From the UHGV virus genome UHGV-1805255: a stretch of 13,501 bases of DNA; one strand, given 5' to 3'. A program made the translations under genes and the position numbers. A model generated the notes under the pieces. It had not been told where the DNA came from. It was given only the letters and a program-made list of their open reading frames with translations, and did not search any database. This document shows, piece by piece, positions 9,515 through 13,501 of this stretch; positions within the stretch are counted from its first letter, which is position 1; each line of letters opens with the position of its first letter. This DNA comes from a virus.

Positions 9515-9540
<26 letters not shown>

Positions 9541-10060
9541 TCAGCAACCCCGGTATCAGTTCATCCAGCGCGGCTGCTTTGTTCATGGCTTTGATAATAT
9601 CCCGTTTCAGGAAATCAATATGCCGGTTATCCAGCTCAGGAAAACGTCGCTGCACCGACAGAGGAATACCGTCGAGAATACTGGATATTTCCCTTGCTAT
9701 ACGCGACAGCACGAAAGTACAGAATGCGGTTTCCACCACTTCAGCCGATTCTTTGGCATTTTTCAGTTCCTGCGCCGTCGCCTGAGCACGAGTCAGGCGA
9801 TGGCGCTCAAATTCAAGTGTTCCGGGGTGAAGATCTGCCTCGCTGGCCAGCCGCAGTTCTTCAACCTCCCGGCGCAGCTTTTCGTTCTCAATTTCAGCAT
9901 CCCTTTCGGCATACCATTTTATGACGGCGGCAGAATCATAAAGCACCTCATTACCCTTACCACCACCCCGCAGAACGGGCATTCCCTGCTCCTGCCAGTT
10001 CTGAATGGTACGGATACTCGCGCCGAAAATGTCAGCCAGCTGCTTTTTGTTGACTTCCAT
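9515..10060 (-). CDS. Nu1: Terminase small subunit Nu1
   Basis: 181-aa ORF (MEVNKKQLADIFGASIRTIQNWQEQGMPVLRGGGKGNEVLYD...) matching lambda gpNu1, with the N-terminal winged-HTH region. ATG at 10060, directly downstream of cosB. Confidence 0.97.
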
Positions 10061-10084
10061 TGTTCATTCCACGGACAAAAACAG

Positions 10085-10199
10085 AGAAAGGAAACGACAG
10101 GGGCCAAAAAGCCCGTTTTCAGCACCTGTCGTTTCCTTTCTTTTCAGGGGGTATTTTAAATAAAAACATTAAGTTACGGCGAAGAAGAACGGAAACGCC
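10085..10199. promoter_or_regulatory. cosB: terminase (Nu1) binding R-elements R1, R2, R3
   Basis: A perfect 17-bp inverted pair, agaaaggaaacgacagg (10085-10101) and cctgtcgtttcctttct (10125-10141), plus a third related element gaacggaaacgcc (10187-10199). These match the lambda CGTTTCC-type R sites between cosN and Nu1. Confidence 0.85.
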
Positions 10200-10237
10200 T
10201 TAAACCGGAAAATTTTCATAAATAGCGAAAACCCGCG

Positions 10238-10249
10238 AGGTCGCCGCCC
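10238..10249. other. cosN: 12-nt cohesive-end sequence (GGGCGGCGACCT on the minus strand)
   Basis: Plus strand aggtcgccgccc at 10238-10249 is the reverse complement of the lambda cohesive end. The 49 nt on the Nu1 side are identical to the lambda left end as I recall it. Confidence 0.9.
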
Positions 10250-10310
10250 CGTAACGGCCCGGATCGCCGGAAAGGACCCGTAAAAATGATAATGGTTATC
10301 ATTTTCAATG

Positions 10311-10498
10311 TAGTCCGGTTTCTTCCACCATCGCACCGGACAGGCGACTATGAGGGGACAACGCCGCGCTCCGTTAACGCGGTAAACCCCGGTGTGTATC
10401 GTTTTTGATTATCCCCGCACACTCGCGCAGAGGAGTCTCCCTGTCGGGCTGCGGTCTCTGTTAATGAGGGAATACAGCGACGATACGGCGCATGATGT
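10311..10498. repeat. Copy 1 of a ~190-bp imperfect direct repeat (cos-proximal copy)
   Basis: By-eye alignment with 12086-12285: ttcttccacc...cagg...atgagggaca...gcggtaaa...ccggtgtg.atcgtttttgattat..ccgcacactcgcgcagaggagt...gtcgggct.cggtc...gttaatg.gg.aatac.gcgacgat. Roughly 85-90% identity over the core. Confidence 0.8.
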
Positions 10499-10524
10499 GT
10501 CAGGCTTGAATACATTTATCCGTT

Positions 10525-10550
10525 AAAAGGGATATCAGTTAAGTTATCCC
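10525..10550 (-). terminator. Weak terminator-like hairpin 3' of cargo gene B
   Basis: The mRNA reads GGGAUA-ACUUAACUGA-UAUCCC followed by UUUUAACGG. The 6-bp stem is AU-rich and the U-tract short, so this is a weak call. Confidence 0.25.
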
Positions 10551-10607
10551 GTGTAGGGTATAAGCCATTATCAAAGCCACTCAGTAGCGAATGGCTTTTG
10601 TAATGGA

Positions 10608-11057
10608 CTATTTAATTAGTGATGCTGCGTATTCGATTAGATATAACTTAGGTGCCAACCAGATTTTTAACCATGTCATATTGGTTACTACAGCAATAAT
10701 AAAACTTACCCACAGAACAAAAACTGCTGCTAATGGTAAGATAAGAAAACTAATCTCACCGTTACTTTCCCAAATCATGGTCGGTTTGTATTTAGGCTTC
10801 CCTTTTTCCCATGACCATCCTTCATTATCGAACTTACCAATTTCAACTTTTTGGTACTGTTTCTTCATAAACCAAATAACCAGCGGGATTGTTGAAATGG
10901 CTATTAATGTTTTAATCAGGCTATCAACCATATTCCATACCAGCAACTGATGAACAACATCCGGAATCTGAGCCTGACTGAATGCAATGGCGGAATCAAT
11001 TCCATCGCTGGCCTTCTTCAATAAATCAACAAGAATTTTATTTGCTTCTTCTTGCAT
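10608..11057 (-). CDS. Cargo gene B: small (149 aa) predicted two-pass membrane protein, function unknown
   Basis: ATG at 11057 preceded by AGGA at about 7 nt; the track ORF begins upstream at a TTG. Two hydrophobic segments (SLIKTLIAISTIPLVIWFM and ISFLILPLAAVFVLWVSFIIAVVT) flank a Lys-rich loop. About 37% GC in a sampled stretch. No homolog recognised. Confidence 0.7.
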   Translation of the reverse strand: MQEEANKILVDLLKKASDGIDSAIAFSQAQIPDVVHQLLVWNMVDSLIKTLIAISTIPLVIWFMKKQYQKVEIGKFDNEGWSWEKGKPKYKPTMIWESNGEISFLILPLAAVFVLWVSFIIAVVTNMTWLKIWLAPKLYLIEYAASLIK

Positions 11058-11181
11058 GTTTATATCCTGTAAGTTGTAAGCCTGTTCGAGAAAAATAAAC
11101 AACTACGAGAGACAGAAAAAAATATCTCAGGCTCTCTTTCTATAAGCTTTTAGTTGAGGATGTTCTGCAAAACAAAACTGG

Positions 11182-12042
11182 TTAGTTATGTAACTGCTTC
11201 CGGAATACAACAGCCGACGAGCTACAACGTAAAATTCGTTTGATTGTGGCAGTTGAGGAAACAGACTTGCATTTCTCAACATCATCAATAATGACCACAT
11301 CCGGTACAGGAATGACGCGGGTATGCAATGTTTTTGCACTAATAACATCACAGCCATTCAGTGGTCGAATATCTGCATCTTCAGGCACTACCAGAAGCAC
11401 ACGTTTTTCCGGTGCAGAAAAGCCAGCAGCAAGAGTGCGTGACAATAAAGTCATTCCGCTGCGTGGCTTCATACAAATTTCAGAAATATGATTCTTTTCG
11501 TCCAAATGATGCTGGACATCATTTTTATCATCACTCAACAACTCTGCTGTTAATACAATCCCTGCTGTCTCAGATTTCCAGGAAATGCTGATATCCTGAT
11601 CATCTGCATCAACATCATATTTCATCGAGTAAGGACTAAAGCTACGTCCAACGAACGCATCATTTACCAGTACACGCCCACCCTGTCTGACCTGAAAGTC
11701 AACGCGCCCGGAAAGCTGATTTGCTGTTACAAGCAATGCCTTTTTTCTTTTTGTTTTATTGCTCATTGCCACCAACTGTTCAGCCATCTCTCTTGTCACA
11801 CTACCAGAAACTCTTCCTTGCATTTTCACAGAAAATTTTCTGGATGTAGTAGCATCGACATTAAAAAATCTGGATGTAATCAGGCAGTTATTAACAATTG
11901 GCATCAGCTCACTTACGATTGTAAAAAATTCCCGGTAAAGCTCATTTTGCTTTTCAACACACAGCTTTCCACAATCGTCCAGCTTACGCTCAAGAGCACT
12001 TAACCTTTCCATTATTGAATTAATTTTTTGCAACTCTTTCAT
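11182..12042 (-). CDS. Cargo gene A: 286-aa protein of unknown function, predicted soluble, N-terminal coiled-coil-like segment
   Basis: ATG at 12042 preceded by AGGAGG at 5 nt (MKELQKINSIMERLSALERKLDD...). The track ORF extends to a TTG at 12303 through the GC-rich repeat, with an R/C/S/P-rich translation that I do not consider coding. About 38% GC in sampled stretches. TAA stop at 11182. Confidence 0.75.
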   Translation of the reverse strand: MKELQKINSIMERLSALERKLDDCGKLCVEKQNELYREFFTIVSELMPIVNNCLITSRFFNVDATTSRKFSVKMQGRVSGSVTREMAEQLVAMSNKTKRKKALLVTANQLSGRVDFQVRQGGRVLVNDAFVGRSFSPYSMKYDVDADDQDISISWKSETAGIVLTAELLSDDKNDVQHHLDEKNHISEICMKPRSGMTLLSRTLAAGFSAPEKRVLLVVPEDADIRPLNGCDVISAKTLHTRVIPVPDVVIIDDVEKCKSVSSTATIKRILRCSSSAVVFRKQLHN

Positions 12043-12065
12043 CAAAACCTCCTGACAAAGATACC

Positions 12066-12083
12066 GTGCGACCACGGTCGCAC
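12066..12083. promoter_or_regulatory. Palindrome gtgcgacc-ac-ggtcgcac (copy 1), candidate operator / protein-binding site upstream of cargo gene A
   Basis: Perfect 8-bp inverted arms around a 2-bp centre, 24-41 bp upstream of the gene A ATG and directly abutting repeat copy 2. Confidence 0.5.
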
Positions 12084-12085
12084 GC

Positions 12086-12285
12086 TCCTGAATACATGCC
12101 CTGTTTCTTCCACCCTCGCACAGGACTGGCGAGCATGAGGGACAAACCCGCGAATCATTAGTGCGGTAAAAACCCGGTGTGCATCGTTTTTGATTATTTC
12201 CGCACACTCGCGCAGAGGAGTTCCCCGTCGGGCTACGGTCATGGTTAATGCGGAAATACGGCGACGATGCAGCGCGGTATTTAAT
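12086..12285. repeat. Copy 2 of the ~190-bp imperfect direct repeat (upstream of the cargo cassette)
   Basis: Aligns with 10311-10498 (see copy 1). It is bracketed on both sides by the 16-18-bp palindrome. Confidence 0.8.
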
Positions 12286-12302
12286 GTGCGACCACGGTCG
12301 CA
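12286..12302. promoter_or_regulatory. Palindrome tgcgacc-ac-ggtcgca (copy 2)
   Basis: Same core as 12066-12083 with 7-bp perfect arms. Centre-to-centre spacing is 220 bp, about 21 helical turns. Confidence 0.5.
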
Positions 12303-12322
12303 AACGAGAAACAAAGAGATTT

Positions 12323-12634
12323 TTATGCTACAGAGGAACAAGCTGGCGGGTAATTCAGCGTAGTGAATACCGGCATCTCCATCTTGTATGCGTAATGATA
12401 CTCAGCAGTTGCTCCAGCAGACGCTTTCCAGCCAGGAAGCATCAAAATAGCATCAGCACAACGAAGCATTGCAAAGCAAATATCCATGTATTCACGTTGT
12501 GTCAAACCATTAGGCAAAGTGGCTGGATTCAAGACAGAGTGACCATGTCGTGACAAACGATCTGCCTCTTTATTAAAGGCGTCACGATTAAAGTTCTCAT
12601 ATCCCGTCATTGGCCCGGCAATATAAATTTTCAT
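12323..12634 (-). CDS. DUF4406 / nucleoside 2-deoxyribosyltransferase-like small protein
   Basis: 103-aa ORF with ATG at 12634 (MKIYIAGPMTGYENFNRDAF...LMLPGWKASAGATAEYHYAYKMEMPVF). The N-terminal IYIAGPxTG and the LPGW-x-S-x-GA-x-x-E motifs fit my recollection of the DUF4406 family. Family assignment is from memory. Confidence 0.6.
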   Translation of the reverse strand: MKIYIAGPMTGYENFNRDAFNKEADRLSRHGHSVLNPATLPNGLTQREYMDICFAMLRCADAILMLPGWKASAGATAEYHYAYKMEMPVFTTLNYPPACSSVA

Positions 12635-12675
12635 TCACTATCCAACAAATTGAGCTCGTTTTTGATACAGAGGGA

Positions 12676-13113
12676 TTAATTCAGGCATTGCGTCTTGATG
12701 TATTCCTGCAAGTAGTTAACCTGCGCAGTTATCCTGTCGATCCCACTTCGGAGACGGTAATAATTGAGTTCAGCATCTGCTGTAAGTCTTGGGCTTTCTC
12801 CATCGCCCATGCTGCTGGCTCCGGTCGTTGACTTTGCACAGGTGGCGGCGACTTGCAGGCGCTTACGCCCAGCAGAAACATCAGCACGGAGGCTTTCGAT
12901 AGTCGCGTTAGCATCAGCAAGCTCCTTTGTATATCTGGCATCGAGTTCTGCTACGTCACGTTGACGCTTCTGCATATCAGCGATTGTGGATGTGGCTTTA
13001 TCGCGCTGCTCTTTGTAGGAGATGGCGTTATCACGGTAATGATTAACCGCCCATGACAGGCAGACGATGATGCAGATAACCAGAGCGGAGATAATCGCGG
13101 TTAACCGACTCAT
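12676..13113 (-). CDS. Rz: i-spanin Rz (inner-membrane spanin subunit)
   Basis: ORF 12676..13149 matches lambda-type Rz from the ATG at 13113 ([34 protein letters not shown]...). N-terminal TM segment, coiled-coil-rich periplasmic part, and an embedded Rz1 frame. Confidence 0.9.
12729..12914 (-). CDS. Rz1: o-spanin Rz1 (outer-membrane lipoprotein, embedded in Rz in +1 frame)
   Basis: Embedded ORF with ATG at 12914: [36 protein letters not shown]... Signal peptide with lipobox-like VSAC followed by a Pro-rich segment, as in lambda Rz1. An alternative upstream ATG at 12941 is possible. Confidence 0.75.
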
Positions 13114-13205
13114 GACATCAACACCCCAACGGCCAGAAACCACGGCCACGCATCGTTGCCATTAAATGCGAGCAACGCTGCCATGAAAAAGAAAATCATG
13201 CTCAT
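13110..13205 (-). CDS. Putative 31-aa hydrophobic micro-protein between R and Rz
   Basis: Hand translation gives [31 protein letters not shown]. Its ATG overlaps the R stop (ATGA) and its TGA overlaps the Rz ATG (ATGA). No RBS is evident, and it is below the size cutoff of the ORF track. Confidence 0.35.
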
Positions 13206-13501
13206 TGCTGCCCCCACAAACAGACTTCACGCTCAATCTCACGACGAGTCATCAGGCCTTTCCATTGCTTACCGCCAGCAGATATCCAGCGACGTAGCTG
13301 ATCACATGCGCCTTTGATATCGCCCTGGTTTATTTTGCGAAGAAGCGTCGATGTTCTGAAATTACCAGCGCCCACGTTGTAAACGAACGAGTAAAGAGCG
13401 CCGCGCGTTGTTTCCGGGGCACTGTTGCAAAGTTAGCGATGAGGCAGCCTTTTGTCTTATTCAAAGGCCTTACATTTCAAAAACTCTGCTTACCAGGCGC
13501 A
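13202..13501 (-). CDS. R: Phage-21-type (T4-lysozyme-like, GH24) endolysin R, C-terminal 99 codons; 5' end lies beyond the window
   Basis: Hand translation of the minus strand gives ...[71 protein letters not shown], matching the C-terminus of the phage 21 R / RrrD-type lysozyme as I recall it. TGA stop at 13202-13204. Not in the ORF track because it has no start in the window. Confidence 0.85.

Follow-up and report, generated by a model that had tools for sequence, protein, structure and literature searches.

A duplicated noncoding element with an apparently conserved RNA fold brackets a two-gene cargo cassette at the lysis-packaging junction of a lambdoid phage

RESULTS

The locus and its repeat

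We analyzed a 13,501-nucleotide stretch of virus genome UHGV-1805255 (the window), in which every feature described below lies on the minus strand, i.e., the strand of the late transcript. Read in that direction, a DUF4406 gene (12323-12634; PF14359, E = 3.7e-34), which is cargo between Rz and the repeat, is followed by a noncoding element, E2 (12099-12278), two further cargo genes, geneA (11182-12042) and geneB (10608-11057), and a second copy of the element, E1 (10313-10493). The 3′ end of E1 is 33 nt upstream of what we take to be cosQ (10273-10279), beyond which lies the presumed cosN, the 12-nt cohesive end (10238-10249), both placed by reference to the lambda cos sequence. The cos region of the window (10238-10279) aligns with those of three other loci (L128, L140, and L141). 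The first packaging gene, encoding the terminase small subunit Nu1 (9515-10060), was named from the annotation of PhiR46_1, which is 97% identical here.

The first-pass annotation had described the cassette as flanked by two direct repeats of about 190 bp (10311-10498 and 12086-12285), 85 to 90% identical by eye and without a shared open reading frame. Formal alignment bore out the repeat itself. BLASTN matched 10315-10491 to 12100-12275 with 82.6% identity over 178 bp (E ~1e-45), MAFFT aligned the copies in the same register, and a covariance model built from 81 homologues found exactly two matches in the window (E1, 223.8 bits; E2, 207.2 bits), the next best scoring 7 bits. The window holds no third copy. 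Conservation across 101 flank-extended homologues gave the element sharp edges, running on the late strand from ATGCGCY... to ...GGAAGAAACCGGA. With E1 and E2 delimited in this way, the earlier coordinates are right to within a few bases, but the unit measures about 180 nt, and its copies are 80 to 83% identical rather than as similar as they had looked by eye. The element proper contains 35 differences and 3 gaps in 179 aligned columns; its longest perfect block is 22 nt (CCGCACACTCGCGCAGAGGAGT), and the shared blocks quoted previously are present in both copies. The lack of a conserved reading frame held when all frames and indels were checked: no frame on either strand is stop-free in all copies (shortest run, 20 to 25 of 59 codons), and variants differ by frame-breaking indels of 1 to 2 nt. 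A small protein encoded by the element was thereby ruled out.

Neither gene of the cassette was assigned a function. The geneA product (286 aa) matches phrog_2571 (E = 9e-161) but has no match in Pfam, PADLOC, or NCBIfam and only insignificant ones in the PDB; its homologues, all annotated "hypothetical," come from Escherichia only. An AlphaFold model for the cargo had a mean pLDDT of 52.9, too poor for a fold search. The geneB product (149 aa) matches phrog_3054 (E = 1e-58), and hydrophobic stretches can be seen in it by eye. The G+C content is 34 to 39% in geneB and 34 to 45% across the cassette, compared to 50 to 56% in the neighboring genes. On the minus strand upstream of geneA, we found no sigma-70-like site, only terminator-like hairpins. 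The cassette, whose geneB sequence suggests a putative membrane protein, thus has the atypical composition of a moron, sits as morons do between conserved phage genes, and is present or absent among near-identical phages. In lambdoid prophages, defense morons have been described "upstream of the packaging module," and the lysis-packaging zone is a recognized slot for cargo and defense genes (PMC11364771).

Short palindromes border E2 on both sides. One copy (12286-12303) lies between the DUF4406 stop codon and E2; the other (12065-12084; plus strand, GTGCGACCACGGTCGCAC), terminator-like with a weak U tract, lies between E2 and the geneA ribosome-binding site. A palindrome search gave 2 matches, versus 0.03 expected. 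The unit of element plus palindrome also occurs at loci with a single copy of the element (L128, L030, and L130). E1, for its part, has an upstream flank (10494-10607) that travels with it: L042, L070, and L013, which are loci with one copy of the element, share this segment at 88 to 90%, and the similarity begins right at the geneB stop codon. The flank includes a terminator-like hairpin, read from the sequence, at 10525-10550 (GGGAUA..UAUCCC followed by UUUU).

Distribution and position of the element

The element is present once, ahead of cos or terminase, in about 400 lambdoid phage records that lack the cassette (398 records, of which 391 have it at near full length). Among complete E. 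coli genomes, 4,017 of 5,426 (74%) carry it, at 10,384 places; in 11 of 12 sampled E. coli rows, its annotation was "none." Many lambdoid phages of E. coli, Shigella, and Salmonella carry the element, and a scan of species-representative genomes yielded only 8 loci, mostly from Escherichia or probable contaminants, indicating a narrow taxonomic range.

In annotated contexts, the element is on the late strand, 3′ of the lysis genes (Rz and often bor) and 5′ of cos or terminase. It occupies the same position in PhiR46_1, Lambda_ev203, Stx2 II, S107, phage 21, 1720a-02, and Sakai Sp5 (at 1,275,440-1,275,630 in Sakai), and variable cargo genes occur on both of its sides across phages. It also precedes terminases of non-lambda types (Stx2 type and HK97 type), and its distance from cos ranges from 33 nt to ∼1.5 kb (0.4 to 1.5 kb in Lambda_ev203, phage 21, and wild-type lambda). 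Wild-type lambda carries a variant at 46,867-47,042 (115.7 bits) with a different middle domain. HK97, N15, and phi80 lack the element, and it is therefore dispensable for phage growth in general; taken together with the divergent lambda variant, its absence from these phages means that any function is nonessential.

The first pass had proposed, as one reading, an RNA or DNA element that acts in cis, is required ahead of cos, and became duplicated with the insertion. The cis-acting part gains support from the RNA fold described below, but a requirement linked to cos does not agree with the varied terminases, the distances of up to ∼1.5 kb, and the three phages without the element. The same facts make it very unlikely that the element serves packaging or recombination as a DNA site, whether an accessory cos subsite or a Chi-like site protecting the right end. 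The closeness of E1 to cosQ would suit such a site, as would the octamer GATGGTGG in the 3′ loop, which is one mismatch from Chi (GCTGGTGG) and, given how RecBCD enters lambda DNA, would be in the orientation active from the right end. However, the octamer is not conserved (GGGGGTGG, AGGGGTAG, and CTGGCACGG also occur), the window contains no true Chi site, and compensatory changes in hairpins are not expected of a site bound by protein as duplex DNA. We likewise rejected one of the known cos subsites (cosQ, cosN, or cosB), given the unfixed position, the varying terminase type, and the absence from HK97, N15, and phi80.

Recombination at the element

The sequences flanking the element are strongly reassorted: among 107 copies, we distinguished 19 classes of flank on the upstream side and 19 on the downstream side, which occurred in 46 combinations. 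The element is thus a conserved, noncoding stretch between modules, with unrelated alternative flanks and breakpoints inside it, as in a lambdoid linker. The two copies in the window have different affinities. E1 matches the lone copy in phage 1720a-02 at 99.5% identity, and in comparison with PhiR46_1 its mismatches are concentrated in 10200-10500, as in a swapped patch, while E2 is ∼93% identical to single copies elsewhere (L128, L030, L130, L064, and L070). Each copy is closer to the single copies of other phages than to its partner; E1 and E2 thus descend from two different element lineages that were brought together by recombination between phages. One parent carried the cassette 3′ of its element (E2-palindrome-geneA-geneB), and the other supplied the flank, E1, and cos. 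This agrees with an earlier suggestion that the repeat is a linker for module exchange and that the cassette arrived with its own diverged copy. Duplication on insertion, on the other hand, fails, as the copies were not made by duplication in situ.

Could the repeats instead be the ends of a mobile cassette, i.e., terminal repeats or target-site duplications left by transposition or integration of geneA-geneB? Direct repeats do bracket a low-G+C two-gene cassette, and the 18-nt palindrome is duplicated around E2. We nevertheless consider this origin highly improbable: the element occurs once in the ∼400 records without the cassette, its two copies are not each other's closest relatives, and the cassette encodes no transposase or integrase. 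Furthermore, the arrangement DUF4406-palindrome-geneA without E2 was absent among the 15 matches listed, all of which consisted of two pieces that span 940 nt. A transposon, insertion sequence, or MITE with a target-site duplication was rejected because the repeats are direct, transposase domains are missing, and the position is a single syntenic one. Insertion of E2 plus palindrome as a 220-bp unit with an 18-nt duplication was also rejected because, among the matches listed, DUF4406-geneA always came with E2.

Recombination between the copies had been predicted to excise the cassette cleanly, and alleles with the expected structure exist in nature. The predicted 806-nt cassette-less junction was found as a contiguous sequence in 5 E. 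coli genomes. Both of the loci examined (L140 and L141) have one chimeric element, with an E2-like 5′ part and an E1-like 3′ part, and no cassette; the upstream palindrome is retained. Their flanks are 98 to 99.7% identical to those of the two-copy phages; where the two flank alignments meet, they have the 171-nt element, and nothing more, in common. Near-identical relatives with one chimeric element and without the cassette are the product expected from inter-repeat recombination, and a crossover inside the element thus appears, from these sequences, to add or remove the two-gene cassette, the alleles being compatible with loss as well as gain. A crossover between two phages that each had one copy, and had never carried the cassette, could also have produced the chimeric single-copy alleles.

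A conserved fold on the late-transcript strand

We aligned 81 distinct copies and derived a consensus structure with RNAalifold. The fold comprises 42 pairs, with 98.4% of cells paired, whereas controls with slid registers had 33 to 61% paired. It consists of three separate helical domains. In E1, the 5′ domain is a 90-nt irregular hairpin (P1 to P5; 10396-10486) in which each helix is 99.5 to 100% paired; P1 (GUAUCGU/ACGAUAC) and P2 (UAUUCCC/GGGGAUA) both have compensatory changes, and the internal loops (AUCAAAA and CAUUAAC) are near invariant. The middle hairpin (CCGCG/CGCGG; 10364-10382) is the family's most variable domain, with the haplotypes CCGCG/CGCGG, CUGUG/CGCAG, and CCGUG/CGCGG and with differing forms in the Stx2 and wild-type lambda lineages. 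The 3′ hairpin (10314-10340) has a UCCGGU stem and a conserved 15-nt loop (GCGAUGGUGGAAGAA). Five of its seven pairs have changed on both sides (CCGGU/ACCGG, CCUGU/ACAGG, and CUCGAU/AUCGAG), and its loop varies less than the stem, with an invariant GGAAGAA core.

Twelve pairs in all had compensatory changes on both sides, a number reached in none of 500 shuffles (mean, 4.8), although these counts represent few independent events, as the copies are closely related (mostly from E. coli, with 75 to 100% identity), the pattern used to collect them predetermined some of the 5′ domain's 3′ strand, and the arms are tightly linked within each hairpin. Independent compensations were also seen in further lineages: in that of Salmonella, they affect P2 and the 3′ hairpin, and in wild-type lambda, pair 37:86 has become G-C. 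Relative to E1, E2 has three compensatory pairs, three one-sided wobble changes, and one broken pair. G-U pairs make up ∼10% of cells (summed from the pair table), including an invariant U-G at 39:84; they would mismatch on the opposite strand, and the fold therefore fits only the late-transcript strand. In all annotated contexts, the sense strand of the late genes is the strand of the fold. Predicted folding of the single sequences, however, was not more stable than that of shuffled sequences (z = −0.98 for E1 and −1.12 for E2; +0.08 for the opposite strand). Overall, the family apparently keeps a conserved secondary structure on the late-transcript strand.

These data also address whether the element is purely a DNA linker, with no RNA function, in which similarity is maintained by homologous recombination and the apparent covariation reflects linkage of sites in a few haplotypes. 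The extreme reassortment of flanks, the recombination patches and chimeras at the element, and its dispensability in HK97, N15, and phi80 would all fit, as would the weak folding z scores and the copies with mismatched hairpin arms, likely recombinants (CCGGU/ACAGG in 5 or 6 of 81). We nonetheless regard a pure linker as unlikely. Against it stand the excess of pairing-preserving double changes over shuffles, the collapse of pairing in slid registers, strand-specific G-U patterns, a 3′ loop more conserved than its stem, and independent compensations in the Salmonella and lambda lineages. In addition, conservation ends within a few bases on both sides, which recombination alone does not require. 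Because base-pair covariation is strand specific, the element seems to be more than a passive linker.

Comparison with known RNAs

Rfam cmscan of positions 9900-13501 (both strands, E ≤ 1) returned only a spurious mir-578 match in cosB, and no Rfam model, including those for AsxR, AgvB, STnc100, IsrK, and DicF, matched the element. Searching the literature as text with 15- to 20-mers of the element (both strands) or with "ECs1218" produced no match, and a paper on lambda gene essentiality by CRISPRi does not cover the element. Some candidates were dropped because their defining sequence or context is lacking here: phi29-type packaging RNA, single-strand initiation signals, and ERIC/REP sequences. 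An integron attC site was rejected given the three helical domains, the lack of an inverse core pair by eye, and the lack of an adjacent integrase in annotated contexts.

An RNA of ∼180 nt cut from the late or read-through transcript and acting in trans on a host factor or RNA, e.g., by sponging Hfq, CsrA, or ProQ or by serving as an antidefense decoy, would explain several features: a discrete, sharply bounded unit whose last part is a stable hairpin, invariant unpaired segments (AAUAAUCAAAAAC and the GGAAGAA loop), occurrence independent of the neighboring module types, and nonessentiality, as is usual for cargo. It is still improbable. Neither copy contains a promoter-like or intrinsic-terminator-like site; a query of the supplement on Hfq-bound small RNAs (sRNAs) of enterohemorrhagic E. 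coli (EHEC) prophages with the gene names and coordinates of Sp5 yielded no entry in the bor-terminase interval; and neither packaging nor terminase comes up in a 2025 review of phage sRNAs.

DISCUSSION

The interpretation that we hold to be probable is that of a duplicated, structured, noncoding junction element that works in cis as RNA in the late transcript and provides homology for cargo exchange. Judging from covariation, it would act within the Q-antiterminated late transcript, where it would mark the boundary between lysis or cargo genes and packaging genes as a determinant of processing or stability; alternatively, it could be an insulator that holds terminase silent in lysogens. The most likely cis role thus lies in processing of the mRNA, in its stability, or in insulation. 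Through its conserved sequence, the element would also provide the homology at which cargo is swapped, duplicated, or lost. A stronger version, that the element represents an undescribed family of functional structured RNAs that bind a host factor, set the fate of late mRNA or silence terminase, and double as the crossover site for the transfer of defense-type cargo between phages, is plausible but more tentative. The factor may be an RNase, Hfq, CsrA, ProQ, the ribosome, or RNA polymerase.

The element bears the signature of a folded RNA that is missing from Rfam and from nearly all the annotation we examined, although complete E. coli genomes hold more than 10,000 copies. If functional, this RNA would add a new regulatory feature to the late operon of lambda-type phages. 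Even if the RNA has no function, the element remains useful as a marker by which cargo slots can be located and spurious "hypothetical protein" calls, such as ECs_1218, corrected. A specific conserved element is now identified as the anchor of the lysis-packaging cargo slot, and the cassette-less alleles provide natural evidence that crossovers inside it add or remove the cassette.

Boundary ("linker") sequences of lambdoid mosaics and zones of moron insertion were reportedly described by Juhala et al. in 2000 and Clark et al. in 2001. The former paper is cited in PMC4104026. The element resembles such linkers in being a conserved stretch at a module junction, with unrelated alternative flanks, internal breakpoints, and adjoining low-G+C cargo. 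It differs in its ∼180-nt length with sharp edges, its strand-specific covariation, its single fixed lysis-to-packaging junction in hundreds of phages, and its duplication around a cassette here. The locus also recalls Campbell-type integration and excision or unequal crossing-over, in that direct repeats bracket the cassette, relatives have one hybrid repeat, and the flank alignments overlap by exactly the repeat. Unlike att sites, however, the repeats are 80 to 92% identical, functional-looking elements that imply no site-specific recombinase, and the longest perfect block is only 22 nt in the window, against 55 nt in PhiR46_1.

Among RNAs, the sRNAs of lambdoid prophages (AsxR, AgvB, StxS, Pas, svsR, STnc100, and Esr41) are similarly noncoding and conserved in position, but AsxR, AgvB, and Pas lie 3′ of pR′, near Q and the lysis genes (with AsxR and AgvB being only 51 to 60 nt), and svsR is located at cI. 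The put RNAs of HK022 are cis-acting antitermination RNAs of ∼70 nt with two stem-loops, situated just 3′ of the early promoters. Like put, the element would be a cis-acting folded RNA within a lambdoid operon, with the potential to influence the polymerase that transcribes it; it lies, however, ∼3 to 5 kb into the Q-antiterminated operon, and the two were compared only through the negative Rfam search. RNase III sites of T7 and lambda sib are intercistronic hairpins for processing and stability in polycistronic phage mRNAs. We know of no sequence similarity between them and the element, which shares with them its place, as a structured RNA that separates functional blocks within a long phage transcript, and the form of an irregular hairpin with ∼20 stacked pairs and internal loops. 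Compared with RNase III sites, the unpaired nucleotides of the element are much more conserved, and it has three domains in place of a single hairpin.

Two copies of a noncoding junction element flank the cargo cassette

The window comes from a lambda-like phage with its late genes on the minus strand, where transcript order runs from Rz (13149-12676) through a DUF4406 gene (12634-12323), element copy E2 (12099-12278), cargo gene A (12042-11182; 286 amino acids [aa], phrog_2571), cargo gene B (11057-10608; 149 aa, phrog_3054), and element copy E1 (10313-10493) to cosQ/cosN (about 10279-10238), Nu1 (10060-9515), and terminase A. Between cosN and Nu1, at the place expected for cosB (the terminase-binding region), lies a 26-nt inverted repeat (10085-10141; 88% complementary), the source of a spurious mir-578 match in Rfam.

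The first-pass annotation had proposed a direct repeat around the cassette, and formal alignment bears out both the pair and its location: BLASTN matched 10315-10491 to 12100-12275 (82.6% identity over 178 bp; E of about 1e-45), a MAFFT alignment was concordant, and a covariance model built from homologues recovered both copies (223.8 and 207.2 bits) and no others in the window. The repeat is about 180 nt long with 80 to 83% identity, rather than ∼190 bp with 85 to 90% as first estimated, and the element proper spans 179 columns with 35 substitutions and 3 gaps. The boundaries of E1 and E2 were set from 101 homologues with flanks, in which conservation starts and stops sharply. No reading frame is conserved across element copies, in keeping with the earlier view that the repeat is noncoding and arguing against a small protein. 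As no frame is conserved across the family, three overlapping CDSs called "hypothetical protein" are probably spurious gene calls (ECs_1218 of Sp5 [L139, Sakai NC_002695, 1,275,440-1,275,630], Stx2 phage II ORF C87 [L003, 1295-1540], and phage 21 CPT_21_72 [L006, 1108-1245]).

The element is widespread and fixed in position

An E1 query matched 398 phage records (391 near full length; 400 places in all), only two of which hold two copies; the repeat is therefore not specific to phages with the cassette. Among complete E. coli genomes, 4,017 of 5,426 carry the element, in 10,384 places (median, 2; maximum, 11), and PGAP annotation was absent at the element in 11 of 12 sampled rows. All annotated contexts, including PhiR46_1, a lambda hybrid, Stx2 phage II, Salmonella S107/ES18, phage 21, 434, 1720a-02, and Sakai Sp5, share one orientation, with Rz or bor before the element and cargo, cos, or terminase after it, while the lysis and packaging modules beside it are of several unrelated types. 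The earlier reading had proposed looking for a single copy upstream of cos in phages without the cassette, and such copies lie before cos or terminase in about 400 records. Wild-type lambda (NC_001416) carries a diverged variant between bor and lambdap78 (46,867-47,042; 115.7 bits), in which the middle domain differs and pair 37:86 is a compensated G-C. HK97, N15, and phi80 have no copy, even by unfiltered model scoring, which indicates that the element is common but dispensable and speaks against a packaging-site role. Its taxonomic range is narrow. No Rfam family matches it, known prophage sRNAs map elsewhere, and no description was found in the searchable literature.

The element resembles a folded RNA

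An unbiased MAFFT alignment of 81 distinct copies was folded with RNAalifold, and we added the middle hairpin to the consensus. The fold comprises a 90-nt irregular hairpin (P1 to P5) whose internal loops are nearly invariant, a variable middle hairpin, and a 3′ hairpin with compensatory variation in its stem (CCGGU/ACCGG, CCUGU/ACAGG, and, in DNA letters, CUCGAU/ATCGAG) around a conserved 15-nt loop with the core GGAAGAA. Across the 42 pairs, 98.4% of cells are standard pairs, falling to 33 to 61% when partner columns are slid by 1 to 3. In this sample of closely related sequences with tightly linked hairpin arms, both-side changes occur at 12 pairs, a number reached by none of 500 shuffles (mean, 4.8). 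The pattern used to collect homologues fixed part of one strand, and the arms are mismatched in some copies. E1 and E2 differ by three compensatory pairs, three one-sided wobble changes, and one broken pair. By our sum of the pair table, G-U makes up about 10% of paired cells, including one invariant U-G; the opposite strand would have A-C mismatches at these positions, which assigns the structure to the late-transcript strand. Folding energies do not stand out (z of about −1). Taken together, the data suggest a folded RNA read from the late strand.

Modules are exchanged at the element

The 500-nt flanks of 107 copies fall into 19 upstream and 19 downstream classes, joined in 46 combinations. 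Furthermore, the window is about 97% identical to PhiR46_1 over 3.3 kb, and 52 of the roughly 90 differences lie within 10200-10500, i.e., in E1 and the stretch to cos. Judged by these comparisons, the element is a recombination junction, as in the earlier proposal of a linker for module exchange.

The two copies have separate histories. E1 is 99.5% identical to the sole copy of phage 1720a-02, and E2 matches single copies in five other loci (L128, L030, L130, L064, and L070) at about 93% identity, whereas E1 and E2 are only about 83% alike. Each copy is thus nearer to single copies elsewhere than to its partner, which points to two lineages joined by recombination and contradicts duplication in situ or upon insertion. 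E1 keeps its usual upstream flank (10494-10607), which single-copy phages also have, with homology beginning at the gene B stop codon, and E2 keeps its usual downstream partner, an 18-nt palindrome. This palindrome is followed by short gene A-like ORFs in L130 and L030 and by cos directly in L128. In L060, a diverged gene A remnant and gene B precede a single element. Depending on the phage, the cassette therefore lies on one side of the element or the other, and joining the two arrangements would give the two-copy form.

The window holds two occurrences of the palindrome, GTGCGACCACGGTCGCA, and no more (12066-12083 and 12286-12303; 0.03 expected by chance), one on each side of E2; in related phages, it recurs at other positions (L015:1993, L039:10745, and L052:1340 and 6550). 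Single-copy phages have it downstream only (L128, L030, and L130) or upstream only (L140 and L141). It may serve as a terminator, a protein site, or an alternative point of crossover.

The two-copy form is rare, and every instance in the data examined involves this cassette. It accompanies the full cassette in 25 E. coli genomes and occurs in two phage records and loci L001, L015, L039, L052, and L137. A DUF4406-to-gene A query was covered to at least 80% in 28 genomes, and E2 lay in between in all 15 listed, which argues against a mobile-element end. In the two-copy relative L039 (10745-10853), E1 breaks off after the 5′ half, and the palindrome and cos come next, a further rearrangement inside the element. 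The closest relatives of the window (H71, H165, and H168 to H171) are 45- to 75-kb records, at least one of which bears a plasmid label, and YDC107_1 has been assigned to Ravinvirus (N15-like); the window may thus derive from a plasmid-prophage and not from an integrated lambda. N15 itself has no copy of the element.

Recombination between the repeats as a likely route of cassette loss or gain

We searched for the junction predicted from a crossover in the 22-nt block common to E1 and E2. Five E. coli genomes gave one contiguous 806- to 807-nt match, in the order DUF4406, palindrome, one element, cos, Nu1. L140 and L141, the two examined, carry a chimeric single element, with E2-specific bases and the upstream palindrome in the 5′ part and a 3′ part identical to E1 of PhiR46_1. 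Against PhiR46_1 and YDC107_1, the flanks show 98 to 99.7% identity, and the overlap between the two flank alignments corresponds exactly to the 171-nt element. A pattern of this kind is classically left by homologous recombination between direct repeats or by the reverse event. An allele matching the suggested excision product thus exists, but it is compatible with either loss or gain, and a crossover between two single-copy phages would leave indistinguishable alleles. The cassette should be more stable in the window than in PhiR46_1 and YDC107_1, because the longest perfect block between copies is 22 bases in the former and 55 in the latter two, and RecA requires roughly 23 to 27 bp of perfect identity. 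A separate deletion in YDC107_1 (L137, 3074-3131) and L015 (5869-5926) has removed the equivalent of window 10631-11457, which comprises the 3′ portion of gene A and the whole of gene B, and has left 950 bp between the copies; repeat recombination is therefore not the only route by which the cassette decays.

Possible roles of the element and its cargo

Beyond the observed anatomy, distribution, covariation, mosaicism, and loss-or-gain allele, we tentatively favor a role in processing, stability, or insulation, because we found neither a promoter nor an intrinsic terminator within the element, and because it holds a fixed operon position whatever the neighboring module types and ends in a stable hairpin. 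It may instead be a trans-acting RNA or a purely DNA-level linker. Under the favored processing, stability, or insulation role, it would act as RNA in cis within the Q-dependent late transcript, at the border of lysis/cargo and packaging genes; in one form, it would block read-through from cargo promoters from expressing terminase in the lysogen. The conserved 3′ hairpin loop of E1 contains GATGGTGG (10321-10328, minus strand), one mismatch from the Chi octamer GCTGGTGG and in what we take to be the active orientation for RecBCD that enters at the right cos end close by. The octamer differs from copy to copy, and the absence of a true Chi site from the window argues against a Chi-like role.

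Both cargo PHROGs are of unknown function, and neither gene had a match in Pfam, PADLOC, NCBIfam, or PDB. The cassette is low in G+C, gene A homologues are confined to Escherichia, its AlphaFold model is poor (pLDDT, 52.9), and gene B has hydrophobic stretches by eye. The slot is a known location of defense genes (PMC11364771), and the cassette could be an uncharacterized defense or exclusion system.

Conserved junctions and cargo exchange are already known from mosaic lambdoid phages; new here are the identification of the junction element, the findings that it covaries like an RNA and is abundant without being annotated, and natural alleles with cassette loss or gain through it.
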